A stretch of 30,409 nt of DNA, taken from assembly GCA_002269645.1 (NCBI GenBank), contig NIVC01004948.1, positions 1 through 30,409 of the forward strand, in the 5' to 3' direction. The stretch is from Macrostomum lignano (taxonomy: Eukaryota). This document shows positions 1 to 22,698 of this stretch, in pieces. Numbering within the stretch: the first letter of the stretch is position 1; each line of letters opens with the position of its first letter. The position numbers were made by a program, and so were the translations under genes. Under the pieces are notes generated by a model that was not told the origin of the DNA, ran no database searches, and saw only the letters and a program-made list of their open reading frames with translations.

Positions 1-1
1 T

Positions 2-266
2 AAGCTTCCAGGAGTTGAATCACCATACATACTGACAAACTCTGAGTTTCTACGCTTTTTATATCTACCTGGAGAGCTAGAGAAAGACACCAAAAGAAGA
101 GCTACAGATCCATACTTCAGCCTTGATGTACATAAAATAGACAGACATTTTACCTCCGACTCGGTGACTATTACTTTTTATCTCAGGCCTTTAACCCTAA
201 ATCCCCACGCGGTCATTCACTAGAGCTGAACTCCTAGTGATACCAGCTGACACGGAAATTAATTAA
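2..266 (+). pseudogene. int: C-terminal end of Polinton RVE integrase (partial, frameshifted as given)
   Basis: From base 2: KLPGVESPYILTNSEFLRFLYLPGELEKDTKRRATDPYFSLDVHKI; from 201 in another frame: IPTRSFTRAELLVIPADTEIN* (TAA 264-266). Matches the recalled PGELE..RRATDP..S..V..I / P.R.F.R.ELL..P.DTE tail of Polinton integrases. Two -1 shifts join the pieces. Confidence 0.7.
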
Positions 267-282
267 AATATTAAAATAAAAA

Positions 283-725
283 ATGACAAAGATTGAAACC
301 AGAACCATCAATAAACTCAATAAAATCATTGAATCAAAGAAACCAGGTCTTATATCAATAAAAGGTGCCAAAGTAAAATCGATCCCGTGCAGCAAATAGT
401 TCAATGTAATGACAAAGACACAGCATCACAGATGAAAAGTCAGGAGGAATCCTACCATTAGCAGCTCTTATTCCGATCATTGCAGGCGCTGTAAGTGCCG
501 CAGGTGGTGTAGCTGGAGGTGTAGCAACTGCTGTTAAAGCTGGGAATGATAGAGCCACCAGCTAGAATTGCAAAAGATTGCAAGAGACAAAGGTATAACA
601 ATTAAGGCAGGAGAGGGCTGCCCCGATCGTGATGATTTTGAGCATGAAAATTCTGTAAGCAAGTCTGACATTGTCAAAGCATCATGACACTGCACAATGC
701 TGGGTTTACAATAATGCGCATGTGA
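283..725 (+). pseudogene. Adenovirus pX(mu)-like small virion protein (four -1 frameshifts as given)
   Basis: ATG 283 MTKIETRTINKL..., then DPVQQIVQCNDKDTASQMKSQ, then GGILPLAALIPIIAGAVSAAGGVAGGVATAV (from 443), then HQLELQKIARDKGITIKAGEG..., then IMTLHNAGFTIMRM* (723-725). GGILPL..IPII resembles the adenovirus pX precursor GGILPLLIPLIAAAIG. Confidence 0.65.
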
Positions 726-850
726 TGAGGTTTAAAACCCCACTTTATCCAGCTTCATAAACCTAATACTACTGATAGGATGTAGAAACAGTTCAACTTT
801 TCTATCAGGGTGGTCACCCTCAAAAATTTTTTTTTCTTTTATAGAAAAAA

Positions 851-3800
851 ATGCCAAAAGCTAATCCAGCAAAAGATTTAGTCAACAAATATTTTTCAAA
901 AGGCGTCTCATTTCAAGACAAAAGTAATTTACTAAGAGAAGCATGTAAACAAAGTTTAACACAGACCCTGGTCACCTGGGAAGCTATGAAAAACAGTTGG
1001 AAATCATCAATCAATTAGAATCCAACCAGTATGCGCCTATAAAAAATTCTGCAAAGGAACACCAAGAGAGGAGTCGCAACTTAGTTAACAAATACGAAAC
1101 TCTCACTGGTGAAAAAGCAAAGTACCCACAAAATAAGCAGGAACAAGAGAAATTAGAGCAATTAATCCATTTAAAAGAGTCGGAGCTTGCCATTGAAGAG
1201 ATTAATTTTGCACAGAGGAAGTTTACAGAACATTACATAGAGTACACAATCCCAATTAACGGCACCACCGCAAACATCTACGACTATAAAGACAGCATCC
1301 AATCAGTTGTTGATCACACACTCAAAACACGCAAGACCTTTAAACTACAGATATCATTCAAGATTGCGTTTTATATGCCTGCGAAACCCACTGAGCATCT
1401 CGAGTATTACATGACAACAAAGGCAAAGCCATTCACCCAACAGACACACTGGATCCTTTCCTTCAAGATGTCACTAAGAAAATTGAAGCGTTTACATCCA
1501 GAGGTTCCGGATGGGTCGTGGGAGGGATTCAAAGAGCGACTGTCATGGTCATGAAATATGACCCACTTAAAGCCTCCTCTTATATAGAGCTCCCGCATAA
1601 GCTAGCCGGTAAAAAAGCTTGCATAAATGTTAAAAATAAAGACAATTGCTGTGCTCTATGGGCAGTTCTTTCTGCACTTCTTCATGATAGTGTACCTCAC
1701 CACCCGAAAGAACCTCAAATTATCAAAATTATTTCAACTACTATCTCATCGAATGCGAAAAGAAGGGAATCAGGTTTGACAAAGGAGGCTTGGCGATCTC
1801 TCAGATCCCAAAGCTAGAAGAGTGTTTAATAACAAAATTAGAATCACAGTCTTTGAGTGGAGTGAAAAAACTGAGAAAGTTCAACCGGTCAGATGTAGCA
1901 AAGACGTTTTAGATCCTGAGGGGAAAAGGCGGACTGAAGTGGATCTTCTAGTGATTGGTAATTTACTAGAGGAGGCTCACTATGTTTGGATTAAAGATCT
2001 TTCAAGACTCATTCACAAGCAGTTGAATAATCATCACGAGGCTGTTGCCATCTGCCGCTTGTGCCTTAAGCATTACAGTGGACCTGAACGCTTTGAAAAC
2101 TAACAGAGCATGAATTATCATGCGAGGATCACCCGACAAACTGCTCTCTTCCTTCAGCTGAAGAGAAGTATCTCGGTTTAAGAACTATCACAAGATGGAG
2201 AAGCTCCCATTTGTTGTATATGCTGATTTCGAATGCTCAATCGTGCCGGAAACACAAAAACAAACTCAAACTCAAAAACATGTCCCCAATTCAGTAGCAT
2301 ATGCCTTTATTAATACAAAAGGACTTGTTGAGTATAATTATTTCTTTGGAGAGCAGTGTGTGGAGCAGTTTATTGCCAGAATGTTAGAGTTGCAAAGAGT
2401 GATTAGCACCCTTCAACCTGTTCCAATAATGATGACTGAGGAGGATGAAAGCAATTTCCTATCAGCAACTCATTGCCACATCTGCAGGAAACATTTAACT
2501 TGCACTAATATTAAAAACCCCACCGTTAGGGACCACTGCCACTTTACTGGGAAATTTAGAGGTGCAGCGCATAACACCTGTAATCTAAAGCTAAAATCGA
2601 ACATTCATGATCTAACGATATTTTGTCACAACGCAAAGAACTATGACATGCATTTAATAGTTGAAAAAATCGGCATGATTCCAGACATACACCTTGACTG
2701 CATCGCAGAGAACAAGGAGAAGTTTAAGTGTGTTGATATTAAACAGGATAATTCGGTAAAGGTAAGGTAAAATAAGACTGAAGGATTCATATCAATTTCT
2801 AGCTGCCAGTCTAGACGAACTAAGCAAGAATCTAAAAGATGAACAATGTACATATACAAAGATGTTTGCAAGTAAAATTACAACAGTGATGAATCATTTA
2901 AACTCCTGAGAACCAAAGGCTTCTATCCCTATGAAAATATTACTGGGTATCACGTATTTGAAGAAGGTTTACCACCAAAAGAAAAGTTCTTTTCAAAGCT
3001 AACAGACTCTGGAATCTCTGACAAAGACTATGAGCACGCGAAGCATGTCTATAATTACTTTAATTGTCAAAACTTCTTCCAGTATCACCTGCTTTACCTC
3101 TTCACAGATGTGTTTCTGCTGGCTGATGTGTTTGAAACCTTCAGATATACCTGGTACACAGCATATGGCCTCGATCCAGCACATTATGTGTCTCTGCCTG
3201 CCACTAGCTGGGAATCTTTGCTTAAAATGAAATGGGATCAAGATCCAGATTGGTACATTGAACTTCTTACAGACATTGACATGTACAATTTTGTCGAATC
3301 GTCAAAGCGAGGGGGATCTCAATTTGCGTTAACAGGTATGCAAAAGCAAACAATCCCTACATTGATCTTACAATAAGGAGCAGCCCTCAAACTACATTAC
3401 TTACTTGGACGCTAATAATCTCTACGGGTGGGCGATGAGTCAAGATCTTCCAGTTAGAGATTTTCGATGGCTACCCTCATCAGAACTAAAGTGGACTTTT
3501 CATTGGCTGCCATTTATGAAGTTGATGTTTACATTCCACCAGAGCTTCACGACTATTTCTCTGACTTTCCACCCTTCCCAGAGAACATCAAGTGCCCGAA
3601 AATAATCGAAACTCCCAATGATAATAATGGAACTTGGCACCTGTCAGGAACAGAAAAAGAACATACAGAGAAACTAACACAGAATCTAAACAACAAGACA
3701 CGTTACAAAATCCATTACAAACTGCTTCAGTATTTTATCTCACTTGGTTGCAGGGTCACCAAAGTTCACAGGGCTCTTACATTTACAGAGGAAGCGTGGA

Positions 3801-4680
3801 TGAAACCCTACATTGATAAGAACACCCAGTTTAGGACCAAAGCAACCAACGACTTTGACAAGAACCTCTTTAAGTTGGCCAACAACTCTGTCTATGGCAA
3901 GACTCTTGAGAATGAGAGGAAAAGAACAAACCTGAAACTTGTTACCTCATCAGAGCCTGCTGTTATTCAGGCAAATATGTCAAAGCCAACATTCAAAGAA
4001 CTCCATATCTTTAATAGCTACTTAGGTGTGATCATATTTTACAAAACCAAGGTGACGCTGCGCAAGCCGATCTATACAGGTGTCACTGTTCTCGACGAAT
4101 CAAAACGTCTGATGTACCAGTTCTTCTATGGCATGAAGCAGCAGTACAAGGATAAAATGAAACTCTTGTACACTGACACAGACAGTTTTATTATGGACAT
4201 TCAAACAGAAGACATTTATCAGGACATGCTGCAGCAAAAAGATTTGTTTGACTTGTCTGAGTATGATAATCTTTCAGGACACAGAATGGCGATCAAGTGT
4301 TTGACGCTACTAACAAGAAAGTGATTGGGAAAATGAAGGACGAGATTGCTGGTGACATAATCACTGAATTCATTGGGTTGAGAGCAAAGTCCTATTTTGT
4401 AAAATGTGAGTCGTCAGACCCAATTAAAAAATCAAAGGGAATTCCGAAACGTGTGGTTAGGAAGGAAATTAATGAAGCTGAATACAGAGACGCCTTGAAT
4501 TGCAACAAAAAGACATCACATGAGTTCTCAAAGCTACAATCTAAAAACCATATTATTCACACAATTCAGCAAAAGAAGATTGGACTGTCAGGTGCAGATA
4601 ACAAGAGATTCATTTTTGATGACAACATTAACAGTCTACCGTTCGGGCACTGGAGATTAGGTTTAGGAGATTGGGTTTAG
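851..4680 (+). pseudogene. polB: Protein-primed family B DNA polymerase with endonuclease VII-like insert (12 frame changes as given; may be intact in vivo)
   Basis: Stitched frames give RGSGW..., KACINVKN.DN.C..WA, ExoI VVYADFE, HCHIC...RDHCHFTGKFRGAAHNTCN, ExoII FCHNAKNYD, KGFYPYE, ExoIII YLFTDV, motif A YLDANNLYGWAM, motif B KLANNSVYGK, motif C YTDTDS, GLRAKSY, KSKGI and PFGHW. Confidence 0.92.
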
Positions 4681-4725
4681 GAGGTTGAGGTTGGGTTTAG
4701 GAGGTGGAGGTTAGGTTTAGGTTTA
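4652..4725. repeat. G-rich degenerate tandem repeat, GGAG(A/G)TT(A/G)GGTTTA-type units
   Basis: ggagattaggttta ggagattgggttta ggaggttgaggttgggttta ggaggtggaggttaggttta ggttta, spanning the PolB stop codon. Confidence 0.8.
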
Positions 4726-4753
4726 AGAGAAAGTTTAATAAACCTCATAAAAA

Positions 4754-5155
4754 ATGACGACAAATAACTTTCTTGAAGATTTGGCTAACGAACTGGAAAT
4801 CCCAAACTTTAGAGGAATATTTATGAGGGACACTCTGCCTGATTTTCCTCTAAGAAAGGAATGCGGCATCATGAACTTTGACACCACCGATAAGCCAGGA
4901 TCTCATTGGGTTTGCTGGGTGATTGATCCCGATCGCAAGCACAAGTGTTATTACTTCGATAGCTATGGGACGGCAGTACCAGAAGAGCTAAGAAATTATA
5001 TGAAGGGGAAAAATAATAAAAAAATTTATCGCTCAGACTTTATTCTCCAAGGTCTTAGCAGTGATATTTGCGGTGAGCTGTGCATGACTGTTTTGTATGC
5101 AATGACCAAAACACGAAAGACCTACAAGGAAATTATTCTTGGCTGTGTTTCATAG
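4754..5155 (+). CDS. Adenain-like cysteine (maturation) protease
   Basis: 133 aa with FRGIFMRD.LP, ECGIMNFD...GSHWVC (His), YYFDSYG (Asp) and Q...SDICGELC (Gln/Cys); frame intact. Confidence 0.9.
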   Translation: MTTNNFLEDLANELEIPNFRGIFMRDTLPDFPLRKECGIMNFDTTDKPGSHWVCWVIDPDRKHKCYYFDSYGTAVPEELRNYMKGKNNKKIYRSDFILQGLSSDICGELCMTVLYAMTKTRKTYKEIILGCVS

Positions 5156-5892
5156 GGTTCATTGTGCATTCCTCGTCGTCCTTCTTGCCGAATTTCTTGC
5201 CGAATTTTTCGCCGACTTTCTTTCCACATAATGTTGAAAAACTTTCTCGAGTTCATTTTCAGCTGACTCATGTCATCAGTACCGACCATGTTCAAGTTCA
5301 TTCGAATTGATTGTTCATAAAGATCCTGAATGGTTTTGAACTCATCCTCTGAAATGAACTTATCCTCGATTGCCCTTGAAATGTACCCTATGATTGATGT
5401 GTGCACCCCTTTCTCTTTTACTTGCTTCTCCTGTAGCTGCTTTAGTTTTTTTCGCCTGTTTCGCGCTAATGCTCCAGTAATTGCTGAAATAAGTCCACAT
5501 GCAGCACCCACAGAGCCGAGCGGGATTGCGATTGGGGCTGTGATGACTGGCAACACTGAGACAGCTGCAGCAGATCCAGATAGAACAGACACAGATCCTA
5601 GAATCATATTGCTGTAGTCGAAAAATTTACAGTGGTTGTCATAGCGCTTAATTTTCTTTGTTTGTGGAAAATATTTTTTTCAAGATCATCGCGCATTTTT
5701 TGAATCTCCACCAGTCGAAACTGTTGAGAGTTACAAGTAATGACGGGGTAGAGTTTTTGTTGCTCATATTGGGTGCATTCAGATTCGGTGCCAGGTTTTG
5801 TGTGTTCGAATTCGGTGCCATTGAGTTTGGTGCTGTCGGTATTTTAGGTTCAACGTATTGAGACTGATCGTATAGAGAATTTTTTGGGCCAT
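5122..5892 (-). pseudogene. Polinton membrane protein with two hydrophobic helices (three -1 frameshifts as given)
   Basis: ATG 5892 after an A-run gives MAQK/NSLYDQSQYVEPKIPTAPNS..., then QFRLVEIQKMRDDLEK (from 5723), then KRYDNHCKFFDYSNMILGSVSVLSGSAAAVSVLPVITAPIAIPLGSVGAACGLISAITG...ISRAIEDKFISEDEFKTI. The FRL..I, TM pair and IS.A..D..IS..EF pattern recalls a common Polinton ORF. Confidence 0.6.
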
Positions 5893-5984
5893 TTTTTTCT
5901 CTAGAAAAAATAAAAAAAATTATAAAACTATCCGGTTGAAAGATCTGTTTTCTTTTTGATAATTCCATCTGCACCGCCGGTTGT

Positions 5985-6458
5985 CTAGGCGGCTCTCGTG
6001 ACGCCGGAGGATCGCGAGTCCAGCAGGCAGCGGCTGGGCGGCTGACGTTTGAGAGCGTGCCGGATTACTCCGTCGGGGTCCAGAGCTCCTTCTACTCGAT
6101 CTGTAGACATGACCGGACGAGCAGCAGATTCTGCTTCATCAATAGCAATATCACGAAGATTGAGTGTTCTCTCCAGACGATCAAGCCTCCTTATTATTTT
6201 ACCCCAAGAGCTATACATTCCGTTTAGATAGCTACTGTGTGATACATCCTTTCTCTTTAATGCTTCAAGTCTTTCTTTGATTCGATCATGCAACGATGTT
6301 GACTGAGTCATGAACTCTTCTAAATTATTGACTTTAACTGTGTTGGTTGCGACGTTTTCTTTAATTCTATCATGCAACGCTGTTGACTGGTTCATGAACT
6401 CTTCTAAATTATTTACTTTAGCTGTGTTTGTGAAAACTCCTCCTTCAAGAATACGCAT
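5985..6458 (-). CDS. Hypothetical coiled-coil protein with 28-aa internal duplication
   Basis: 157-aa ORF; TNTAKVNNLEEFMNQSTALHDRIKE and TNTVKVNNLEEFMTQSTSLHDRIKE lie at an 84-bp period (TGAACTCTTC at 6311 and 6395). Confidence 0.6.
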   Translation of the reverse strand: MRILEGGVFTNTAKVNNLEEFMNQSTALHDRIKENVATNTVKVNNLEEFMTQSTSLHDRIKERLEALKRKDVSHSSYLNGMYSSWGKIIRRLDRLERTLNLRDIAIDEAESAARPVMSTDRVEGALDPDGVIRHALKRQPPSRCLLDSRSSGVTRAA

Positions 6459-6465
6459 CCGTCTA

Positions 6466-6801
6466 TCAGGAATTTCCCAGAAGATTAACTGATGATCTCA
6501 AGCCGTTGATTAGCGAGACTATCGAAGTTATTTCTGACCTTAGTTCATTAGTTGCGTTTAACAACGGCACATAAAGCTTATCACTTTCAAACTTCTGCCT
6601 AGCTACTTTAAGCCTGAGATCTTCCATGTTTATTTGCAACTGGTGCATGGAGCGCTCTAGGGCTTTCAGTCTGTTTTTATTCAGTTTGATCTCTGGGATC
6701 TTTTCGTCGCTGTTGATATATCGCCTGTCAAGGATGGATATCTGAGCTGATGTAAGAGCGCTGTTGCCAGAAATGGATTCACCTGCAAAGTTTATCGACA
6801 T
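6466..6801 (-). CDS. Hypothetical coiled-coil protein (possibly one gene with 5985-6458)
   Basis: 111-aa ORF co-oriented between the ATPase and the next ORF; heptad-like Leu/Ile spacing; 7-bp gap to the next ATG. Confidence 0.55.
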   Translation of the reverse strand: MSINFAGESISGNSALTSAQISILDRRYINSDEKIPEIKLNKNRLKALERSMHQLQINMEDLRLKVARQKFESDKLYVPLLNATNELRSEITSIVSLINGLRSSVNLLGNS

Positions 6802-6822
6802 CTTTTAATAGCAAATTTTAAA

Positions 6823-7617
6823 TTACAGTTCTTTTTTCTTGCTGATAATCACAAACTGGTAAGGCTGATTCCACTTGTCATAGCAAAGATTAACGAATTC
6901 CTCTTGTGAAATCTTTCTGCTTGAGTTTTTTGTTGGATTTATGAAATAGGCAGGCGCAATGACCTCATTGTAAAATCTTTTTAGCCTGTCCTGTGGAATG
7001 GTTGGAAACAGGAGAATCAGATTGCAGTTCCCACGAATTGTTTTGTTCGGGAGCTCGAACCAATTCTGTGCAATGTAAATTACATTGCAATTGTTATGTC
7101 GCCCTCTTGTAAAATAGTTTTCTATCTGCTTCTGTGGGCCTGTCATACAATCATCAAAGACGATCAAATGCTTTCTCCCCTTTTCTAGCTCATCTGGTTG
7201 GGGTAGAAGTTTGGTCTTTGGATCAGCCTGTGGATCTCCATAGGTGAACACTTTAATGTTCTGCCATTTTTCATTGTCTTTGAGGTGCTTTGCATATTCA
7301 GCAGCTACAATTTCAGGGTTACTGGGAAGGCTCATTTGGTTATTAAAACATGCAATAATGTCCTCTTTGTGCAGTTTGTTTTGCAATCCAGAAATCAACA
7401 TTTTATACTCATCTTGATACAGTGTGGGAGAGTAGATGTGCAGAGTGTCATAGTCGATAAAGCCAGGTCTAAGAAGCATGTTAAAGACTCTGAATGTTTT
7501 ACCTGAACCTGATGAACCAACAACAATGCATCTGAAGTGACTCGGAATTGACTCGTGATGAGAAAACTTAATCTGATTACGCGTCCAGTGAGGATTGAAG
7601 TCGTTTGAAAAGTCCAT
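6823..7617 (-). CDS. A32/FtsK-HerA-like genome packaging ATPase
   Basis: Walker A GSSGSGKT, Walker B LIVFDD, FTRGRH arginine finger, IYIAQ, TIRGN; intact 264 aa. Confidence 0.92.
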   Translation of the reverse strand: MDFSNDFNPHWTRNQIKFSHHESIPSHFRCIVVGSSGSGKTFRVFNMLLRPGFIDYDTLHIYSPTLYQDEYKMLISGLQNKLHKEDIIACFNNQMSLPSNPEIVAAEYAKHLKDNEKWQNIKVFTYGDPQADPKTKLLPQPDELEKGRKHLIVFDDCMTGPQKQIENYFTRGRHNNCNVIYIAQNWFELPNKTIRGNCNLILLFPTIPQDRLKRFYNEVIAPAYFINPTKNSSRKISQEEFVNLCYDKWNQPYQFVIISKKKEL

Positions 7618-7656
7618 TTTTTCTATGATGAAAAAAAATTAAATAATAAATAATTT

Positions 7657-7801
7657 AGATGTGTCATTTCGGGACTTAATGTGTCATTTTGGGACTTAGA
7701 TGTGTCATTTTGGTACTTAATTGTGTCATTTCGGGACTTAGATGTGTCATTTCGGGACTTAGATGTGTCATTTTGGGACTTAGATGTGTCATTTCGGGAC
7801 T
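7657..7801. repeat. Seven tandem copies of a 21-bp unit AGATGTGTCATTT(C/T)GGGACTT
   Basis: Read directly; copy 2 is 20 bp, others differ at 0-2 positions; intergenic, upstream of the ATPase. Confidence 0.95.
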
Positions 7802-7827
7802 AGTCTTGTACCCTCGGAAAGTACCCT

Positions 7828-8217
7828 TTAGTCAAATTTGAAACCACTTCCTTTTTTAATGCTAGCCCTCATCTTCTCATAGACTGCAGGGTCCACACTG
7901 TCTGGATTTGGGGCCAATGGAGCCAGCGGGGCCAGTGGAGGCTGAATCTCTTGTTTAGGTGTTACAGTATCCTTTATCTTTTTGGCTGCTGTGGCTACAC
8001 TGCCAGCCGCTTCGGCAACGTTCTTGATGTTCTCTTTGTTCTCTCCAATGACCTTAAAAATCTTGGCCCCCTGAGCGATCAAATCGGCAAGACCGTTCCC
8101 AGAGCGTTCTTTTCTTGGATAGTGGCCTGCAGGGAAAAGTCCAGATCCGCGTTTAATAAGATTAAGTTCCTCTTTGTCATAGTATTTGTCCACGTCTTTC
8201 TCAAAAATAATCGGCAT
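7828..8217 (-). CDS. Small putative virion core/membrane-lytic protein with GxG motifs
   Basis: Likely start MPIIFEKD (ATG 8217 after an A-run); KRGSGLF, RSGNGLADLIAQGAKIFKVI (amphipathic) and terminal KKGSGFKFD. Confidence 0.6.
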   Translation of the reverse strand: MPIIFEKDVDKYYDKEELNLIKRGSGLFPAGHYPRKERSGNGLADLIAQGAKIFKVIGENKENIKNVAEAAGSVATAAKKIKDTVTPKQEIQPPLAPLAPLAPNPDSVDPAVYEKMRASIKKGSGFKFD

Positions 8218-8233
8218 TTTTACTTGAAATAAA

Positions 8234-9448
8234 TTATTTTTTGTTGAACCGCGAAAGCAGAAGCTCTCTTGCTCTTTTGTCAATATACTTCTTTTCCATC
8301 ATTTTGTCCAGGATGTTGACAAATTCTTTTCTATTTTCATCTTTCATTCCGGTCTTTGCTGCTCCTAGAAGAACCGCTACTCGCTTGTAGATTTCAGAAA
8401 TTCCTTTTCCTGTTGAGGGCGGTTGGTCTTGGGGTTGTGGAGTTGGTTGGGCTTGTAGCTGCTGGGGAGGTGATGCAAAAGACTGCTCACTTTCAGAGAT
8501 GGAACTGTCATGTGGTGCCTGTCTTTGTTGAGGTGTGAAAACTCTTTGCTTGATTCTGTTCATTCGATCTGGAGAGTGTTGTTCTAAGTGTTGCCAGGCA
8601 TCTGGGTGATCATTTTTATATTTAGCTACTTGAGTCGGATCTGCATTTTCCAGTTGCCTGAGTACTTCTGTGAAATGTTGCTGCTGCTGTGGTTGTGGTT
8701 GTTGCTGTTGTTGTTCTAGATATTTTATGACTTCCGCCTGATCTGGCAAATCGAACCATTGTTTAAAGTGCTTGTACTTTTTGAATTTAGTCAGGTTGAC
8801 ACCGCTATCGTACATGTGTTTCAGAACTTCTGGGACCTTTAGTATTTCTATATCTCTAACAAGAGAAAAAGTCACTAGATTTCTGTAGTTCTTTAGCTGC
8901 TTCTCGGAGATTTTCTCTTGGTTCTTGGTCATAAAAGTCAGTAAGGTGTCTGTGAAAGGAATTTTCATAGTTTCTGAGCCTTTGACAACAGAAATATTTT
9001 CCTTATTTATGTCGATATAATATTCCACTGGTTCATTATAAATGTTTTTTCTCCACATACTTATTCCAAATACATATTTCCCATCATGTTCGACACGCTC
9101 TACTGGTCCAAAAATATTATCTGTCACTTTTAGTTGCTGTTGTGGTTGTGATTGTTGTTGTGATTGTTGTGGTTGCGGTTGTGTCTGTGGTTGCGGCTGT
9201 ATCTGTGGTGCTTCTGGAATTTTGCCCAAAACCTTTTGCACTTGGGTTTCCTGTATGTCGTCGATAGTTTCTTTGACCTGATCAATATTTTTCTTAGCTT
9301 CTCCATACCCGGGTTTATGAAACTCTGTGGCTGCTTGGACAAACTCATTGTAGGATTGTTGCTCCTTATTTATTAGCCCGGTAACTCGTTTCTCTGCTTG
9401 TGCCAGCTTCTCCAATTCAGATATTCGCTGTGTACTTTTTCGCTTCAT
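8234..9448 (-). CDS. Gln/Pro-rich Polinton protein with conserved C-terminal helical domain (putative cement/core)
   Basis: 404-aa intact ORF with QP low-complexity tracts; C-terminal GKGISEIYKRVAVLLGAAKTG...EFVNILDKMMEKKYI recalls a conserved Polinton C-terminal motif. Confidence 0.6.
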   Translation of the reverse strand: MKRKSTQRISELEKLAQAEKRVTGLINKEQQSYNEFVQAATEFHKPGYGEAKKNIDQVKETIDDIQETQVQKVLGKIPEAPQIQPQPQTQPQPQQSQQQSQPQQQLKVTDNIFGPVERVEHDGKYVFGISMWRKNIYNEPVEYYIDINKENISVVKGSETMKIPFTDTLLTFMTKNQEKISEKQLKNYRNLVTFSLVRDIEILKVPEVLKHMYDSGVNLTKFKKYKHFKQWFDLPDQAEVIKYLEQQQQQPQPQQQQHFTEVLRQLENADPTQVAKYKNDHPDAWQHLEQHSPDRMNRIKQRVFTPQQRQAPHDSSISESEQSFASPPQQLQAQPTPQPQDQPPSTGKGISEIYKRVAVLLGAAKTGMKDENRKEFVNILDKMMEKKYIDKRARELLLSRFNKK

Positions 9449-9478
9449 TTCTTATTTTATTTTATTTTTAGTTAAAAA

Positions 9479-10765
9479 ATGAACGACCCACTGACACCAG
9501 TTTTCTACAAAATTAACAAGCCTATTTTGAGTGATGATAGCACAATCAAAGCGACTCAGGTAAGAGTTCCCAGTCAGGAAAATCAGAATGAAACTAATCT
9601 TGGTCCTGGCCAAACACTGACATTCACATACAATGGATGTTCGTCTTTGGTTAGTGTGCACAGTCTTAAGAGCGGCTTCCATATGACATTTCAATTCAAG
9701 ACAAAAGGTGGTGCGGATGCGGCTCGTGCTAACGTTGACAAGCATGATGCGGATGTGGCTCTGATCAGTAACTTTTGGGCGTACATGTTCAAGGAGTTTA
9801 GTGTATCGAATGGGAGCACTGAGTTGGAGCGAATCGCCAACTTTGGAATTGTCTATGACGCTCATTGTTTGATCGAGAATCCTGATTTTATTCAATTGGG
9901 AAGTGGTGCGGGTTTTATCGCAGATGAAAAAGAAGGAGACATCAATGACAGTGGCTATAAAAAGAGGAAGAAGAGATACAACTATGCATTGCAAGGTGCT
10001 GATGATGCTGCTAAGAACCCGCTGTATCGGTCTGTTGATGTATTTGTACCATTGAGATTCATGAGTGGATTCTGTAATACATTTAATCGACTGACTAGTA
10101 ACTTTAGCTACACATTTAGACTGACTAGAGATGATCGCAGTAGAGTGTTGTGGACTGGGGCGGACCACACTGGGATGGCTGTGAAGCTAACCGGAATCGA
10201 GCTGTATTTGGAAGTCATTGAGCCAAAGACTGCACTAAAAGCAGACTATCTTAAGGCAATAGAGAAGGACATTGATGTTGCATACACGGCCTACATGTGT
10301 CGAGATGAGCGAAACGAAACTAGAACAAACATCTGCATCAAAGAGGGATCATGCAGCAATCCAAGGTATGTCATTATTAATATGAGAAACCCAAATAGCA
10401 TTATACGCTACATGCATGGAGACGTGCGGTCCATTCAGCATGAAATCAGTGATAATCTTTACCCTGCACTGCCACAAAATGGAGATTTCAGTCAGAACAA
10501 GATTAGCAAATTTTACAGCGAGTTAGTCGACTTGGCTGTGAAAGAGAACAATGGAATTGCTATCACTGCTCTTCAATATGGAACTCTATATCCGATGTTT
10601 GGCGCTGATGTGTCTGCCAGACAAATGCCTACTGATAACAGCCCTGTGAATATCGTGACTAACATTGAAAGGACTGCCGCAACACCCGTGGACCTGTACA
10701 TTGTCTATGCATTTGAGAGGAAGGTGAAGCTTAACATGATCAACAATTCATCCAGTAAAGTTTAA
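9479..10765 (+). CDS. mcp: Major capsid protein (double jelly-roll, hexon-like)
   Basis: 428 aa, beta-rich; ILSDDSTIK near the N-terminus, VFVPLRFMSGFC, YPMFGADVS; directly upstream of the minor capsid gene in a Polinton context. Confidence 0.78.
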   Translation: MNDPLTPVFYKINKPILSDDSTIKATQVRVPSQENQNETNLGPGQTLTFTYNGCSSLVSVHSLKSGFHMTFQFKTKGGADAARANVDKHDADVALISNFWAYMFKEFSVSNGSTELERIANFGIVYDAHCLIENPDFIQLGSGAGFIADEKEGDINDSGYKKRKKRYNYALQGADDAAKNPLYRSVDVFVPLRFMSGFCNTFNRLTSNFSYTFRLTRDDRSRVLWTGADHTGMAVKLTGIELYLEVIEPKTALKADYLKAIEKDIDVAYTAYMCRDERNETRTNICIKEGSCSNPRYVIINMRNPNSIIRYMHGDVRSIQHEISDNLYPALPQNGDFSQNKISKFYSELVDLAVKENNGIAITALQYGTLYPMFGADVSARQMPTDNSPVNIVTNIERTAATPVDLYIVYAFERKVKLNMINNSSSKV

Positions 10766-10788
10766 ATATTTTTTTGTGGGTGAAAAAA

Positions 10789-11652
10789 ATGGAAGCTATA
10801 GCCGAAAGACTAAACAACATTGTTTCACACTCTAAGGAGAGCATTCCTATTACAATAACCGGGCGAATTAATGACTCAAACGGGATGTTTGTTGAAAAAT
10901 TAGAGCAGGCGATTCGCCTGGATCCTGGCGCTAATTACCATGTCTATCTTAACGACTTCACTGGTTGGTCAAACGTTCCCAATGTGATGGCAGCAAATAA
11001 TAAGTTTTATTACAAATGGAAAGGTGCAGCAGCAGACTCTGTGGTATTCCATGTGAGCACGCAAAGTGTGGATACCTACAATAACTTTCTAGAAAATGTC
11101 TTTACTAAGAGAGGCCATTTTGAGACACCTGATGCGAGTAAGCCAGAGAAGAAACTGTTCCCTGTCAAACTAACCTATGATCTCACTGTAATGAGAGTGG
11201 TCATGCAAGTTCACAAAGATGCGGAGGTTGAGTTTAAAGATGACACTTGGTATAGGGAACTGGGATTCGAGAAGAAAGTTTATAAGGCAGAATCCGCGGC
11301 GCGGACCGCCACTCAAGCATCGGGGACCGTTAAAATGGCCCGGGAAAATGTAAGCGGTTTGTTCTTAGCACCCAATATTGCAGACATTGTAAAGGGTTTG
11401 AATATTCTAATCAGAAGCAATCTCAGTCTTGATTGGGTATTTAAGGGAAAGCGAACGAATATTTTGTACAACATCTCCAACTCTGTTGCTGGAGGACAGA
11501 TGGTGGTAGAGAAACCAAATCCAGTGAAAAGAGTTGTATTGAGTAATAAGGAGATTCACGAGATTGTGCTACAGTTTGAGACTGAAGATGGGATGGGCGT
11601 TGATTTTAATGGGGAAGAGTTTGTATTGACGTTGATCATTGAGAGAATGTGA
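10789..11652 (+). CDS. Minor capsid protein (penton-like single jelly-roll)
   Basis: YHVYLNDFTGWSNVPNV..NNKFY, LGFE, and C-terminal EKPNPV...EIHEIVLQFETEDG.GVDFNGEEFVLTLII; ATG 10789 after an A-run. Confidence 0.8.
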   Translation: MEAIAERLNNIVSHSKESIPITITGRINDSNGMFVEKLEQAIRLDPGANYHVYLNDFTGWSNVPNVMAANNKFYYKWKGAAADSVVFHVSTQSVDTYNNFLENVFTKRGHFETPDASKPEKKLFPVKLTYDLTVMRVVMQVHKDAEVEFKDDTWYRELGFEKKVYKAESAARTATQASGTVKMARENVSGLFLAPNIADIVKGLNILIRSNLSLDWVFKGKRTNILYNISNSVAGGQMVVEKPNPVKRVVLSNKEIHEIVLQFETEDGMGVDFNGEEFVLTLIIERM

Positions 11653-11920
11653 TTTTAAAATAACTTAATATTTTATTTCAGTTCTATTTCGAATTTTTAG
11701 TATATTTTTTCTAGTCATATTACTTATTAATAGGCAACCTCACGCTTTTTAGACTGACCAAGCATTATTTTTTTTTCTAACCAGTATTTAGTGAAAGGAT
11801 TGAAAACACAAAAGAAATCGGATACAAAAGGATAGTCTGTGCTCAGTCTATTGTTTTATTATGTCAAAAGTTGGTTAACTTCGCAAGTATTCGCACATAA
11901 CAAACACAAGTCTGTCATTG

Positions 11921-12067
11921 GTCTTTCTCAGAAAAAAAGCTTTTTTTTGCACAGTTGAATTCGTGCGAATTCCTGTTAAGACAGGAAATAGCGCGAATCC
12001 AACTGCGCACTAGTCTTTCTCAGAAAAATGCTATTTTGCACAGTTGAATTCGTGCGAATTCCTGTTA
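11921..12067. repeat. Two direct copies of a ~55-58-bp unit, each with a GAATTCG-tg-CGAATTC hairpin
   Basis: Copies at 11921-11978 and 12013-12067; hairpins at 11957-11972 and 12046-12061. Confidence 0.9.
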
Positions 12068-12289
12068 TGCACATGATTTTTACGAACGTTCGTAAAAATC
12101 ATGTAACCATTGAGAGCCGCTTTATGCTGCACATGATTTTTACGAAAGTTCGTAAAAATCATGTAACCATTGAGAGCCGCTTTATGCTGCACATGATTTT
12201 TACGAAAGTTCGTAAAAATCATGTAACCACTGAGAGCCGCTTTATGCTGCACATGATTTTTACGAATGTTCGTGAAAATCATGTAACCA
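12068..12289. repeat. Four tandem 60-bp units, each with a 34-bp palindrome ACATGATTTTTACGAAC|GTTCGTAAAAATCATGT
   Basis: Palindromes start at 12071 (perfect), 12131, 12191 (1 mismatch each) and 12251 (2 mismatches); linkers nearly identical. Confidence 0.97.
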
Positions 12290-12527
12290 GTGGGAATCGA
12301 ACCATGCGGGGCAGACTGAGACCGGTTTCGGGCTTGTTTGCCCTCGTCAGTCAGTCATAGCCACACGAGGTCGGCTCCACCTCTAGCCAGCTGAGTGGAA
12401 CTGCTATTTATACGCCCTTGCACCAAGTCCTTGCCTTGCACATGGCGACATTTTCTAGTCCACCATGTGAGGAATTCGCGCCATGTTCAAATAGCTTTAC
12501 TATCAGTAAGCTATCGCTTACAAATAC

Positions 12528-12590
12528 GAGCCGCTTTATGCTGCACATGATTTTTACGAACGTTCGTCTAATTAATGTAACCAATAAGAG
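12528..12590. repeat. Solo degenerate fifth copy of the 60-bp palindromic unit
   Basis: gagccgctttatgctgcacatgatttttacgaacgttcgtctaattaatgtaacca; left arm perfect, right arm decayed. Confidence 0.9.
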
Positions 12591-12777: not shown

Positions 12778-13641
12778 TCAGTACTTCGTCTTCATCAGTT
12801 CAAGACCTCCGTTGTGGTCGCTTCGTCTTCTTCTATCTATGCCTAAAAAATTGTTTATTCGACTTGTATTGTTTGTTTGTACAAACTTTCTTTCAGAATT
12901 TGTTACAAAAAAAAATGTTATGTATTTACTTTCTTCATACCAACACCTGACATCCTTCTCATGTTGTTCATCCAGGGAAATACCCTCGATTTGCATCTTC
13001 AATAAGTCCGCAAAGCGTTCATCGATTTTCGCCTTCTCTTCAATCGCCGATTTGTAGCGAAGCAGGGTTCCCATTGTGTAACTTGAAAATATTAGACCTG
13101 GGTACATGATACAGAGAGAGTAAAATTTGTCGTAGTCTCCCACTGTTCGCTTGCTGATGTTGAAAGTGGTGGCGAGCTCTTCCACATTCATTTTGTGCTT
13201 GTAGACCAAAACTTGAATTAAGCGCCCCTGCTCAAACTGCATCATGGCCTTCGCAGTTGACAGGTTCTCGATAGAATAGGTCAGCTTCTTAAACCTCGCT
13301 TCCAAGTCTACCTTTTTCGTTCCATTCAAATTCATGGCGACCAAGTTGAGACCTTCGGAAATTGCACCCAGAGACAACATTACACCACGACTCTCATTCT
13401 CTTCCAGCTTCGCGTATATCCTCGCAATAACTCTCTCTCGCTCGCTCTCTTCCTTTTTCTTGGGAAGCGCCCTCTTCTTATCCGGAATACCTTCAAGCTT
13501 TTCCAAGCTCTCCTGAAACCTTACCAACTCTTCTTCTTTCCAGCTGCTCAGTCTGCTTCCCATTGCCGACCTTTCTTTAGATGACAGCGTGACCGCCAGT
13601 TCAGCAATCGTTGCAATTCTTGTCTCTTTTGACATGGCCAT
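12778..13641 (-). CDS. Orphan helical protein with helix-turn-helix-like motif
   Basis: Likely start MAMSKETR (ATG 13641; frame is open to 13821). Charged helical N-half, then QFEQGRLIQVLVYKHKMNVEELATTFNISKRTVGDYDKFY (HTH-like). The AT-rich 3' part (12843-12935) may be an intron. Confidence 0.65.
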   Translation of the reverse strand: MAMSKETRIATIAELAVTLSSKERSAMGSRLSSWKEEELVRFQESLEKLEGIPDKKRALPKKKEESERERVIARIYAKLEENESRGVMLSLGAISEGLNLVAMNLNGTKKVDLEARFKKLTYSIENLSTAKAMMQFEQGRLIQVLVYKHKMNVEELATTFNISKRTVGDYDKFYSLCIMYPGLIFSSYTMGTLLRYKSAIEEKAKIDERFADLLKMQIEGISLDEQHEKDVRCWYEESKYITFFFVTNSERKFVQTNNTSRINNFLGIDRRRRSDHNGGLELMKTKY

Positions 13642-13714
13642 GATAAAAAGTATTCCTTTTATTGAAGAAAGTTTCGGTTTGACTTGCGGGGCGAGGTCCG
13701 GTGTGAATCGGTTG

Positions 13715-13722
13715 TTTTTATA
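13715..13722 (-). promoter_or_regulatory. TATA box TATAAAAA upstream of the HTH gene
   Basis: Plus strand TTTTTATA at 13715-13722; about 75 bp upstream of ATG 13641 and 58 bp downstream of the HSE. Confidence 0.55.
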
Positions 13723-13780
13723 CCTTTGGTGGTATACGGTAGTACTCGGAAATCCCTGAATATTATCTATCGGATATCCA

Positions 13781-13808
13781 GAATATTCTAGAATATTCCC
13801 TTCTAGAA
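13781..13808. promoter_or_regulatory. Heat-shock element: GAAtaTTCtaGAAtaTTC plus TTCtaGAA
   Basis: Four perfect alternating nGAAn units (an 18-bp palindrome, 13781-13798) followed by a two-unit TTCtaGAA (13801-13808). Confidence 0.6.
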
Positions 13809-13825
13809 GGGAAACCCGCATGGCA

Positions 13826-14355: not shown

Positions 14356-14544
14356 TGTTATGCTCAGAGCATAAACCCTCAGAGCATAACAGTAGGACAC
14401 CTGTTATGCTCTGATTCTGTCAGAGATAATATGGATGGATTTAATGGGATTATGGAGGACGTTTTGTGAGCGAGTGCGACCCCCCTTTTTTTCTGATTCT
14501 GTCAGGGATAATATGGATGGATTTAATGGGATTATGGAGGACGT
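14356..14544. repeat. Cluster of inverted and direct repeats at the left edge of element 2
   Basis: 14-bp-arm hairpin TCAGAGCATAACAG/CTGTTATGCTCTGA (14379-14414, 8-nt loop), a further TTATGCTC-a-GAGCATAA hairpin, and 53-bp direct repeats at 14410-14462 and 14492-14544 (one mismatch). Confidence 0.9.
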
Positions 14545-14655
14545 GAAAAATTTTGTCCCAGAAGCCCCCTCATGCCTTCTACTTTTTTTAATTCCATACT
14601 GTATTTTAGTCCTAAAAATCATCAAAATTCTTGCATTATTTGTTTAATATTAACC

Positions 14656-15424
14656 ATGATAAAAGCACGTTTTTTAAAGAAAAAAAAATTGTTATTCCAG
14701 CCAAGAGCTCGCTGCCTGGTTTGTCGAAAGACCTTCCGCAATGTGGCTGCGCTGCATGCTCACTCGCATGGAGAATGCTTTGCGCCAGATCGACTGTTGG
14801 AGGGGCCATTCGAGGAGCTTCAGGCGCACCCACCAGACGGTTGGTCTGTTCACCTGGAAGAAAGTGCGCATCAGGGGCGAGCCAACTTTCTGCAGTTTGT
14901 TCCTAATTCCGCTGAATCTCCATCGCAAACATCCGCCACCACCGACGACCTTCTACCTGCCGACAAGCTGAACCAGCTGCGCGCCCCAATCTATTGGCTT
15001 TTCAATATGACTTTACAAAAAGGACTGATGTTGAGAACATGTCTGCATGTCAAGGTGAAGCTGTTTCGGATGCTGGCGGATTTGCGGCAACACCCCGATC
15101 TCTCAACAGGCGCTTTAAATTCACCAGCAACTGAAATAATCTCTGCATATTTCAACAGTCACATGGTTACAATTTCACTGGATAAAGAGGGCACCGGTAC
15201 TGGCGAACTGTCTGAGGAGAGTTTCAACGACTGGTTTATGCGTGCAATCACCGAAGTGACAAGCAAAATTGACAGCTTCCAGAAACGTGGCAGTGGTTGG
15301 AAGTATGACAGCATTGAACAGCTTGACCTGATGCTATGCCCCTATAGGAAGTCTCGTTCTCGGCCAAGCTACAACCCGGGCAGTAGGAATTCCACAGCGG
15401 CAGAGCAACAGCTGGGCGGTGGTA

Positions 15425-15459
<35 letters not shown>

Positions 15460-18400: not shown

Positions 18401-18936
18401 GTCTGATGATGGCACTGGTGATGCGCAGACCTGGTGACACGCCCTATAATTCATTGTTCAAGGACCTGATCGCTCAAGGACTACTTGATACCAGCAACTA
18501 TCCGCCGGATCATGCCCTTTATTCTACCCAACACAAGGGTCGGCTGCTTGCATGGAAAGACGAATTTGCTGGAGCGGTTCCAATCGAGTTGGTATTTTTA
18601 CGACCAAAGAACTACTCTTTTCTCTACGTTACCGATACGATTCGGCAACTCTCTCGATGCAAAGGCGTGAGCAAGCAAGTGGCTCGCACGTTCAAGCACA
18701 CGGCCTACCTCTCGGTCTTGGAGAAGAGAAGAGTGATGTATGCAAGCTTCGCTCGAATTGCTTCTAAGAAGAAAGTTGTTTTTCTCATGGAACAGAAGAA
18801 GCTCGCGCTCGGATTTTTTGATACAAAGCGCGCTTGGACAACCCTCCTTGCTTCTCAACCATTCGGACATTGGCGGCTGCGAGCAGCATGCGAAACGCAG
18901 GCAAGAATTACTTTCTTGATACTGTTTAGCATCTAG
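14656..18936 (+). CDS. polB: Protein-primed family B DNA polymerase with N-terminal zinc finger and endonuclease VII domain
   Basis: Uninterrupted ORF (frame opens at 14572; ATG 14656 preferred). CLVCRKTF.....LHAH zinc finger, RGSGW, ExoI VVYADME, DHDH..G..RG.LC..CN, ExoII FHNLSAYD, KGVFPY, ExoIII YLRLDV, YLDANSLY, KLLNNALFGK, GDTDS, LRPKNY, CKGV, PFGHW. Confidence 0.96.
15427..15456 (+). repeat. (GGC)10 microsatellite encoding a poly-Gly linker in PolB
   Basis: Ten perfect GGC codons after GGC GGT GGT AGC. Confidence 0.95.
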
Positions 18937-18987
18937 ATGATACAGTAGCATCTTTAGCTTAATATTTTTTCGTTTTTTTAATTTCAG
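18901..18987 (+). other. Candidate GC-AG intron at the 3' end of polB (terminal exon 18988-19035)
   Basis: CAG|gcaaga donor; long T tract then tttcag|G acceptor; phase-0 splice gives ...ACETQ-ATIDSEKEDYSMDEN*. Confidence 0.45.
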
Positions 18988-20135: not shown

Positions 20136-20201
20136 AGATTGCAGGTTTAAATTGCGCGCAAGAGCGGTAGTATCTGGAAATTACTGCAGTTCATTCTTTT
20201 T

Positions 20202-20416: not shown

Positions 20417-20467
20417 AACTAAATTATTTGCTATTGGTTTTCAAGTCTTTACTATTTAAGCAACAAA

Positions 20468-20961
20468 ATGTACGCATCAAAACGCAGAAAAGGTGTCTGC
20501 AAGCAAAAGAGGAAATCTGTCCCGAATCGGAAATCGCGCTCTAGCAAACGTGTTCAGAGAGGATCTGGGATTGTAAACTGGTTAATCAATCACCTACCAT
20601 TTGAGGTCCACCTCCCTGGTTACAATTTTTGTGGACCGTAAGTGAGCCAAACTTTTTCATGATTTAGTTTGACACTGTTCTAACTAGGAAGTATTAAATT
20701 CGCTCTTAATTAAGGGGCACGCGGTTGCGAAAACGGCTTGCGGAAGGACAGCGAGGGAAAAACCGGTTGGATGATCTTTGCCTACTACATGATGTTGCAT
20801 ACGAAAAGAGCTCGGACACAAACTCTCGTCTGGAAGCTGATCGGTTGTTAGAAGCCGGAGCTAGAGAGATTATAAGCGATCCGAATACTGGGTGGGGAGA
20901 ACGCCTTGCTTCAAAATTCGTGGCTAAGGTGATGCACGCTAAGCAGCGATTGGCAGCCTGA
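20468..20961 (+). CDS. Parvovirus VP1-type phospholipase A2 domain protein, two exons (20468-20637, 20715-20961), 138 aa
   Basis: Spliced product MYASKRRK...QRGSGIVNWLINHLPFEVHLPGYNFCGP|GTRLRKRLAEGQRGKNRLDDLCLLHDVAY... restores the Ca-binding GPG loop and the catalytic HD. Confidence 0.88.
20638..20714 (+). other. 77-nt GT-AG spliceosomal intron in the PLA2 gene
   Basis: Perfect GTAAGT donor, TTCTAAC branch-like site at 20678-20684, ends TAATTAAG; removal restores frame and motif, retention gives an immediate TAA. Confidence 0.85.
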
Positions 20962-20967
20962 ACACAA

Positions 20968-21675
20968 ATGGAAACTTTCAATCTGCAGTTGGCACACGAT
21001 TCCTCAATCATCTTGGCCGGACCATCAAACTCTGGCAAAACTGAATGGGCGCTGCGTTTGCTGCGCGAACGAAATTTGTTATTTAAGCAAGCGCCAACGC
21101 GTCTCGTGTGGTGTCATGGCACGGACCTGAGTCCTGGTGAACAGCACCGCATTCGTTCAAGCTGGGAGGAGGGCGGGAGCGGGCAGCATAATTTGATTCG
21201 AGGATTTCCGCTCGAGCTTATCTCTCAACTTCGCCCACACGATTTGCTGGTTGTCGATGATCTCCAGAGTGAAATGGCCAAGTCCCCCGAATTTACAGCA
21301 ATTTTTACAAAATATGCCCACCACACACCACTAACTTGTCTCTATTTATGTCAGAATCTCTTTCATCGTTCTGATGCTGAAGCGCGCTCGCGAAGCCTCT
21401 CTGCTAGCTACATCTGCCTGACCCGAAATATTCGCGATCGAACGGTTGTTCAAAGCCTAGGGAAGCAAATGTTTCCAAAGAGGAGCAACTTTCTAGTTCG
21501 TGTCTATGAAAACGCAACTGACAATAGGCCCTATTCATACCTGTTTATTGATCTGCGACAAGAAACTCCCGACTTTTTAAGGCTTCGTACTGGTATTTTC
21601 CCGGGTGACAAACAGCTTGCGTACACCTCTGGTAAAAGCAACTCTGTTTCACTTGATTTTATAAGCAATCCATAG
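20968..21675 (+). CDS. A32/FtsK-HerA-like genome packaging ATPase
   Basis: Walker A GPSNSGKT, Walker B LLVVDD, FTKYAHH, YLCQNLF, RSLSASY, RPYSYLFIDL. Confidence 0.92.
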   Translation: METFNLQLAHDSSIILAGPSNSGKTEWALRLLRERNLLFKQAPTRLVWCHGTDLSPGEQHRIRSSWEEGGSGQHNLIRGFPLELISQLRPHDLLVVDDLQSEMAKSPEFTAIFTKYAHHTPLTCLYLCQNLFHRSDAEARSRSLSASYICLTRNIRDRTVVQSLGKQMFPKRSNFLVRVYENATDNRPYSYLFIDLRQETPDFLRLRTGIFPGDKQLAYTSGKSNSVSLDFISNP

Positions 21676-21708
21676 ATTGCACTTTGCTCCTTTGTAGAAA
21701 TTTTGAAA

Positions 21709-22698
21709 ATGAGTTTTTATGTGTTTTTGCCTTCGAATGACAAGAGTTATGCAGATAATTCACCCAGCGAGTTTCGAGTCCGGCTAAAGGATCCACTGAA
21801 TGTTGGAACGCGCTATGAAGTAGCACTGGTTGAGCTAATCTGCGGAGGGTTTCCTGCTTCGGCTGCAAAGGACTCTTCGTTAGATAAAAAGGAAATTGTC
21901 TACTATCAAAGAGACGTGCAAACGTATTTTTCTTCAACAGCACCTCGATTTGTGAAGTTGTGGTCCCAAGCAAACTTGGAGGCATATCTTTTGTGGAGGC
22001 AAGCGGAGGCGGGCTCGGGAGCAAAAATCACATATCAGTGGTTCCTGCGAAACGGTGGTAGCCGATCGGTTCATGTGGAAATTCCAATGACGTTTCTCAG
22101 TACATTTGCCCTAGACGAGTGGGTTGTGGTTCGAGCGGGGATAGGCAATGAAGAAGGTGAATGGAGTGAGGCTTCTCTACGGACTTTGGAAGAGGTTTCA
22201 GCGAAGATGGATAGATTGAACGATAAGTATACTATGATTTTTAATTTTGTTCTGGACCCATATCATGCTGTGAAATTTTTGGGCGATGGAGAACGCATGA
22301 AATCTCTACAAAGTGGTTCAGTGGACGACGCTCTGAAAAAAAATGTTTGGAAGCTTGTGCACCCGTGGACATTTACCATACAATATTTGCCTGGTGAGCC
22401 GTCCGGTGCTGGGGACGACAATAGCAAGCAGTATATGCATTGCTACACTGACATCATCGACTATCAGCCCGTTGGAAGCACATCTGTTCCACTGTTGCGC
22501 GTCGTGGATTTGCAGCGGAAGGGACACGAAGTAACGCATGAACATAGTTCCTTGACAAATCCTTACTATGTTGGAGTGAATCGTCAGGGCATCAGCGAGA
22601 TTTCAATTCGACTGACTGATCAGCGTGGCAAAGGAATACAATTTCAACCGGGCTCGCATACTGTGGCGGTGCTCCATTTTCGTCCTAGAATTGACTAG
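21709..22698 (+). CDS. Minor capsid protein (penton-like)
   Basis: N-terminal MSFYVFLPSN...SEFRVRL..PL....YEVALVE and C-terminal YTDII..Q.VG...VPLLRVV...P.YV.V...I..I.I.L.DQ.G..I.F, typical of Maverick minor capsids. Confidence 0.85.
   Translation: MSFYVFLPSNDKSYADNSPSEFRVRLKDPLNVGTRYEVALVELICGGFPASAAKDSSLDKKEIVYYQRDVQTYFSSTAPRFVKLWSQANLEAYLLWRQAEAGSGAKITYQWFLRNGGSRSVHVEIPMTFLSTFALDEWVVVRAGIGNEEGEWSEASLRTLEEVSAKMDRLNDKYTMIFNFVLDPYHAVKFLGDGERMKSLQSGSVDDALKKNVWKLVHPWTFTIQYLPGEPSGAGDDNSKQYMHCYTDIIDYQPVGSTSVPLLRVVDLQRKGHEVTHEHSSLTNPYYVGVNRQGISEISIRLTDQRGKGIQFQPGSHTVAVLHFRPRID

Follow-up and report, generated by a model that had tools for sequence, protein, structure and literature searches.

Splice-acceptor-like signals at start codons of a Polinton in Macrostomum lignano: candidate sites for addition of a host spliced leader

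Introduction

Spliced-leader (SL) trans-splicing in animals such as Ciona, Oikopleura, Caenorhabditis and flatworms (PMC1488885, PMC7986045) and the leader-spliced late transcription units of adenoviruses and adomaviruses (10.1101/341131) are compared here with the genes of a decayed Polinton/Maverick, element 1, one of two such elements on contig NIVC01004948.1 of Macrostomum lignano (assembly GCA_002269645.1; positions 1 to 30,409, forward strand, hereafter the window). In the accessible portions of the sources on animal SL trans-splicing, the leader is added solely at unpaired acceptors and an operon resolved by SL is one in which every downstream cistron is trans-spliced (PMC1488885). As in these animals, acceptor-like signals in element 1 lie near start codons and genes with and without the signal are mixed; its tandem spacers measure 16-23 nt, compared with 23-30 nt in Oikopleura (PMC1488885, PMC7986045). 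Element 1 differs in that the target is a virus-like element and in that some downstream genes have no acceptor. The adomavirus LO4-LO7 and adenovirus major late units, as far as the available text of their description goes, likewise place acceptors right before the ATGs of virion genes with no upstream coding exon (10.1101/341131), whereas in element 1 the sites occur on both strands, include polB and skip the minor capsid, protease and pX genes.

Little has been established on how Polinton genes are expressed, and with starts set back to back there is no space for a conventional promoter and 5' untranslated region (UTR). According to the sections available, core Maverick genes have been described as intronless, and no transcription of them was seen in nematodes (10.1101/2022.07.12.499685); the virion and accessory genes of adintoviruses appear to be restricted to animals (10.1101/697771), and the gene set of the window accordingly points to an animal host; 'splic' and 'leader' are absent from the text of the latter preprint. 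Polinton DNA and trans-splicing also coincide in eri-6/7 of C. elegans, where, in the accessible text, repeats derived from Polinton terminal inverted repeats (TIRs) pair two host pre-mRNAs and neither an SL nor a Polinton gene is involved (10.1101/2024.01.15.575659). Elsewhere, the available parts of the sources mention trans-splicing just for the mirusvirus terminase (10.1101/2024.03.23.586382) and describe TATA-type starts, with no claim of SL use, for densovirus integrations in tapeworms (PMC6880638); polinton-like viruses of Oxyrrhis are mostly silent and a leader is unmentioned (PMC12721341). The Tor retroelements of Oikopleura were considered as an SL trans-spliced precedent and set aside, because PMC4402516 does not contain 'trans-splic' and has env cis-spliced or driven by an internal promoter. 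The literature search, in which subscription papers were mostly outside reach and supplements were not covered, found no use of SL by Polinton genes.

Acceptor-like blocks before start codons of element 1

The starts of polB, the membrane-protein gene, the A32-like packaging ATPase and the major capsid protein (MCP) are preceded by the same succession of T-tract, YAG (Y, pyrimidine), A-run and ATG (Table 1). The original prediction had placed an AG at each of these starts and at the minor capsid gene of element 2, together with weaker AAG versions at 8223 and 6802, and all were found at those coordinates. Every G letter in the last 25 nt before the four element 1 starts sits in AG. This start-codon signal is non-random, lineage-restricted and shaped like a 3' splice site.

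Under a strict rule (a 14-nt stretch of ≥75% Y and ≥60% T that runs into YAG, 0-12 nt before ATG), the motif occurs at 4/10 starts of element 1 and 0/11 starts of element 2. When the upstream 30 or 45 nt were shuffled with the A-run fixed or free (four nulls), mean counts were 0.043-0.148 and four was reached in 0 of 20,000 shuffles in each null, which bears out the expectation that the pattern is commoner than in shuffled spacers. On both strands of 1-11900 there are nine strict acceptor-like sites; four fall 5-8 nt before a start and a fifth, at 186, may be a chance occurrence. The probability of four in nine at starts is ~1e-7 over the whole element and 1.3e-4 counting spacers only, p values that are optimistic because the thresholds were chosen after the motif was seen. 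A relaxed rule gave 4/10 in element 1, 2/11 in element 2 and 21/468 in related loci; the AAG sites before 8217 and 6801 fail both rules.

Three element 1 starts had been said to lack the AG. No AG occurs within the last 25 nt before two of them, 283 and 10789, whereas the third, 4754, has an AG 20 nt away without a T-tract. Gene 9448 shows TAAG 2 nt before its ATG, also without a T-tract. The assignments of the polB (851) and membrane-gene (5892) starts are presumptive, ATG 851 opening just 55 codons and ATG 5892 just 37 in this decayed copy. The ATPase, MCP and minor capsid starts are confirmed by homologues (55-78% identity), whose first residue is the same Met; these genes therefore need no upstream coding exon, as had been proposed. 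The idea that a leader brings its own AUG, in frame at all sites, was rejected, since the AG-to-ATG distances (6, 8, 5 and 7 nt) follow no phase rule; branch-point matching, which was judged by eye, was also discarded as support, since a match in an AT-rich spacer comes by default.

Table 1. Positions of the start-codon sites, introns and elements in the window (MCP, major capsid protein; DJR, double jelly-roll; pPolB, protein-primed family B DNA polymerase).
Feature	Position (strand)	Description
polB (broken gene)	827..853 (+)	T-tract, TAG 843-844, A6, ATG 851; AG 6 nt from ATG
Membrane-protein gene (broken)	5890..5922 (-)	T-tract, TAG 5902-5901, second AG 5900-5899, A-run, ATG 5892; 8 nt
A32-like packaging ATPase	7615..7645 (-)	T-tract, TAG 7624-7623, A5, ATG 7617; 5 nt
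MCP	9449..9481 (+)	T-tract, TAG 9470-9471, TTA5, ATG 9479; 7 nt
Weak site	8215..8233 (-)	AAG 8224-8223, 5 nt to ATG 8217; stop-to-start spacer 16 nt; no tract
Weak site	6799..6822 (-)	AAG 6803-6802 abutting ATG 6801; spacer 21 nt; no tract
Acceptor-like site	164..186 (+)	96 nt before pX-like ATG 283, no ATG between; within upstream open frame
Protease start (counter-example)	4738..4756 (+)	A-run, no T-tract; nearest AG 20 nt off; AATAAA at 4737
Minor capsid start (counter-example)	10766..10791 (+)	T7 + A6, AG absent
Element 2 acceptor-like site	21632..21711 (+)	AG 21696-21697, 11 nt before minor capsid ATG 21709
Cis intron in element 2 PLA2-like gene	20638..20714 (+)	77 nt, GTAAGT to weak AAG
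Element 1, decayed Polinton/Maverick	1 to ~11900	Left end beyond window
Element 1 genes		pX-like, pPolB, adenain, membrane gene, A32-like ATPase, DJR-like MCP, minor capsid
Element 2	~14500-28330	Intact polB, dUTPase, PLA2-like, ATPase, minor capsid, pX, integrase, MCP, protease

Conservation among relatives and sibling copies

Related DNA was taken from 80 of 568 confirmed metagenome loci (L001-L080), with ATPases 32-46% identical to that of element 1; many of these loci share a few assemblies, so that the counts are not independent. The strict motif was found at 2/419 open reading frame (ORF) starts in them and at 0/155 AT-rich starts with an A-run. ATPase starts were compared in 76 loci, leaving out three without an in-frame ATG and one at a contig edge. 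In 48 of the 76 the ATPase starts back to back, at 7-45 nt, with a small cysteine-rich gene beginning M-(Y/F/H)CxxC; an AG lies in the last 14 nt in 23/76, YAG in the last 15 nt in 10/76, and TAAATG is present at 21/76. Judged from these loci, very short AT-rich spacers are the norm of the family, and the T-tract plus YAG is particular to the branch of element 1. Searches of viral contigs with the ATPase, the MCP and their alignments found no relative, nor did searches of genome contigs.

A closer homologue, P0014 (ATPase 74% identical), is read as FNFFFRLEK before the Met, in register with FFFIIEK of the window, so that both the T-run and the G at -6 have been retained; a Leu codon does not determine which letter precedes this G. 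In the nearest listed loci, L001 (46%) and L002 (41%), YAG stands 1-7 nt before 5/5 visible starts, one of these YAGs being a stop codon. This YAG could be a forerunner of the acceptor or, alternatively, a signal for starting transcription, and cuts both ways.

Sequencing runs were also placed on element 1. Among 23 runs listed, 19 (8 studies) hold at least half of the words of 1800-11700; none is recorded as RNA and 14 were guessed to be RNA. Three probable-RNA runs from different studies and one probable DNA run, all as contigs, were compared with 1-11900. In all four, 30/30 bins were covered, spacers included, and the contigs of the three probable-RNA runs covered the whole element evenly, with no silent control stretch for comparison. 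The interval 9438-9477, which holds the MCP site, was masked as repeat, and contigs drop rare forms.

Sibling copies carry G at 842 (177/177 depth units in run X6, 52/52 in X4, 3985/3985 in X15 and 72/739 in X1), which creates an extra TAG abutting the T-run, with a second AG after it, the arrangement found at the membrane gene. The siblings keep or sharpen the polB site, and the signal is therefore not an accident of decay in this copy. The 7424 contigs of run X15, 90-100% identical, contain numerous variants as well as internal deletions that link 325 to 11170 and 9804 to 10931, so that element 1 likely has many sibling copies. In run X1, depth at 836-842 reaches 739, compared with ~90 nearby, and comes from a short source without the sibling variants.

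Possible acceptors for a host spliced leader

With a U-rich tract that ends in YAG, and an AG that supplies every G within 25 nt, the blocks look most like 3' splice sites and, when all acceptor readings are taken together, probably serve as such. The reading favoured here, still tentatively, is that the T-tract/YAG blocks 5-8 nt before the four element 1 starts are unpaired 3' splice sites for a host SL. RNA polymerase II (Pol II) of the host would transcribe each gene from a promoter further upstream, often inside a neighbouring or antisense gene, given that spacers at several genes are just 16-30 nt long; the U-rich 5' part would be dropped as an outron and the host spliceosome would join the SL, leaving a capped mRNA whose 5' UTR is short and rich in A. 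The pX-like, protease, 9448 and minor capsid genes would keep their own 5' ends.

A U-rich tract plus YAG upstream of the first coding exon, the mark of an SL target, is found at 4/10 starts. That the sites occur on either strand, at polB and at capsid genes alike, favours a leader supplied in trans over viral leaders in cis, and so does the lack of a strong donor before polB: no strong plus-strand GT donor occurs in 1-844. Strong donors do lie far upstream of the other sites. A spliceosomal intron in element 2 (Table 1) makes it likely that Polinton RNA meets the spliceosome in this genome. Genes without the signal point to capping gene by gene, and the proposal that such acceptors generally resolve polycistronic transcripts fails, as the downstream protease and minor capsid genes have no acceptor.

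Several observations weigh against SL addition. The strict motif is missing from six of the ten element 1 genes, including two that follow other genes in their tandem rows, and the MCP tract is explained by the A-rich leader of its neighbour alone. The left end of element 1 lies outside the window, leaving room for a cis donor upstream. SL is patchy across animals and absent from vertebrates and insects, according to the available part of PMC7986045. Among relatives, 48/76 loci manage with back-to-back spacers of 7-45 nt while the strict motif occurs at none of the ATPase starts, L001 and L002 have YAG without a T-tract, and in their sibling P0099 G is absent from the 18 nt before the Met. Contigs of the probable-RNA runs cross the polB site unspliced, and in the set displayed, 24 of the 1167 loose ends and 15 of the 18 joints, neither a leader-like end nor a GT-AG joint was seen at 844, 5901 or 7623; since these runs may be DNA, the lack of a leader or joint weighs little.

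On balance the observation in the original prediction is upheld and its interpretation, SL or a common leader exon, is supported in part: the signal is non-random, lineage-restricted and like a 3' splice site, but a single leader of the adenovirus type cannot serve both strands. SL addition by the host is the role that the signal would most likely have. More speculatively, one Polinton clade could have rebuilt its AT-rich spacers, independently at several genes on both strands, into acceptors for a host SL. A DNA virus would then leave it to host trans-splicing to cap its mRNAs and form their 5' ends, its promoters could hide in neighbouring genes, and the host range of the clade would be tied to SL-using animals. 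SL use would provide a mechanism, a sequence mark predicting workable hosts and, through SL-primed reverse-transcription PCR, a simple way to detect active elements, and would define an animal DNA virus lineage adapted to host trans-splicing, which was not found in the literature searched. SL and cis-leader mechanisms are both known; the use of either here would be new.

Rival readings: cis leaders, start signals and spacer composition

The blocks could instead be acceptors for splicing in cis on long read-through transcripts, either to a viral leader exon on each strand or across short introns in the 5' UTR, which is judged unlikely. The sequence evidence is the same as for any acceptor, donors exist on the minus strand at 11186, 8490, 7502 and 6782, and the even cover of the whole of element 1 would fit long transcripts. 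In the available text, the marbled eel adomavirus uses acceptors just before the LO4-LO7 ATGs with a three-exon leader (10.1101/341131), and these virion genes are related to adintovirus genes, so that cis leaders, if used, would link Polinton expression to the late transcription of adomaviruses and adenoviruses. Two leaders would be required, however, and the plus strand has no strong donor in 1-844. Among the joints displayed, 15 of the 18, none of the GT-AG or CT-AC type has an end at one of the sites. A common leader would also call for the acceptors of one late unit to lie on one strand and to cover the virion genes, whereas the element 1 motif occurs on both strands and at 2/5 virion-module genes (ATPase and MCP; not pX, protease or minor capsid), yet also at polB.

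It is similarly improbable that T-run, (T)AG and A-run form a compact signal for transcription start, used by Pol II of the host or by a large DNA virus acting as helper, from which RNA would begin at or just before the A-run. Poxvirus late promoters combine a T-run with TAAATG, the late initiator, and TAAATG is present at 21/76 related ATPase starts. Back-to-back starts at 7-45 nt across the family (48/76) need very compact signals, the short and narrow G-to-ATG distance (-6 to -9) suits a start site, and L001 has TATAG 1-3 nt before 3/3 visible starts (397-406, 1244-1255 and ~2163-2176) with no pyrimidine tract. As far as the accessible text goes, the promoters of mavirus mimic the late promoter of its helper CroV and likewise put a short AT-rich motif right before the ATG (10.1101/068312). 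Such helper-read promoters mark most or all genes of a class, whereas the motif of element 1 reads YAG rather than TAAAT and follows no early or late class: polB has it, the pX, protease and minor capsid genes do not, and 6/10 genes lack it overall. No recognised RNA polymerase gene of element 1 was found in the window among Pfam families, and an account of entomopoxvirus-associated elements (PMC11296320) lends no support, as it never mentions 'promoter', 'TAAAT' or 'motif'.

Also doubtful is the view that no dedicated signal exists, the T-runs belonging to the 3' end of the gene upstream or complementing the A-rich leader of a neighbour, the A-run being an ordinary invertebrate start context and the AG a product of drift. 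An A-rich run ends all ten starts, with or without AG. The MCP site is a 30-nt spacer separating back-to-back genes, and its T-tract complements the A-rich leader of gene 9448, which contains AATAAA at 9466; AATAAA is also found on the opposite strand at 5909, 7645 and 8228, and T-tract plus TAG blocks without a following ATG lie right of the minor capsid gene. AG is present in the last 14 nt at 23/76 related ATPase starts, and 7/10 against that background gives p = 0.03. Shuffles that keep composition and A-run, however, never reach 4/10, the register is conserved in P0014, and the tracts of polB, the membrane gene and the ATPase have no canonical AATAAA ahead of them on the same strand.

The element 2 site and introns

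The AG before the minor capsid gene of element 2 passes the relaxed rule and fails the strict one. An ordinary cis intron of 66 nt fits this site equally well: a GT-AG candidate (21632-21697), with donor GTAAAA at the 3' end of the ATPase gene, would fuse the ATPase in frame with the minor capsid protein and is similar in length to the 77-nt intron nearby. The latter, in a phospholipase A2-like (PLA2-like) gene that past the intron stays open for 81 codons in phase with a weak PF08398 match, likely shows how a spliceosomal acceptor looks in this host. Since it ends in a weak AAG, AAG acceptors at 8217 and 6801 are possible. Element 1 sites are TAG or AAG, whereas TTTCAG is among the acceptors of element 2.

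Near the end of element 2 polB, a candidate 87-nt GC-AG intron (18901-18987, plus strand) with a strong T-rich TTTCAG acceptor would give polB a different 15-codon C-terminus. In the low-complexity N-terminus of the dUTPase ORF (19306-19437, plus strand), TTTCAG lies 8 nt before ATG 19446, and a GTAGGA donor 132 nt upstream would keep the frame.

Gene content and other features of the window

Element 1 shares with Polintons, Mavericks and adintoviruses, as these are described in the accessible parts of 10.1101/697771 and 10.1101/2022.07.12.499685, a pPolB, an A32-like ATPase, adenain, a DJR capsid, a minor capsid and a pX-like gene. Its ATPase (PF04665), adenain (PF00770) and pX-like protein (PF05829) each score above the family cut-off. 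The polB gene is split over several frames; the piece at 3467-4321 matches element 2 polB (E 6e-35), which carries PF03175, and element 1 is on this basis counted as having a pPolB. The MCP matches PF21738 with E 1e-4 and 22 bits, under the cut-off of 27, and PF21738 is present in 9/9 of its homologues; by these matches it is a DJR-like capsid protein and is counted as the Polinton capsid. Genes are arranged in three tandem rows: pX-polB-protease (+), 9448-8217-ATPase-6801-membrane (-) and MCP-minor capsid (+). Within 1-11900 no integrase of the retroviral type was found (element 1 continues past the left edge), and no matching TIR pair within the window, the left end being outside it.

The integrase of element 2 combines rve and a chromodomain. 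CTACTACT at 28320-28327 marks the right end of this element, with no matching left terminus in the window; we take it to resemble a Polinton right terminus.

An Atlas search returned no usable match for ORF 8237-9448 of element 1; in L002, positions 550-2220 encode 557 aa in a single frame, still open where the contig ends, that fuses the ATPase to a homologue of window gene 9448. A 347-aa ORF at 12781-13821 (minus strand) has no Pfam family and no informative Atlas match, and a search of the window in Rfam gave 0 matches. Several repeats are present in the window. The spacer just upstream of the ATPase acceptor-like site holds an array of 21-nt tandem units (7658-7822), and degenerate TTAGG-like repeats lie between polB and protease (4653-4715), where 3/3 probable-RNA runs show a shorter form (4661 joined to 4706). 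Between the elements, 60-nt tandem units (12008-12295 and 12482-12589) each contain a near-perfect palindrome of 34 nt. A 111-nt direct repeat follows the dUTPase gene (20195-20416), and an element resembling a miniature inverted-repeat transposable element, with inverted arms of 76 and 42 nt, lies at 29154-30037.

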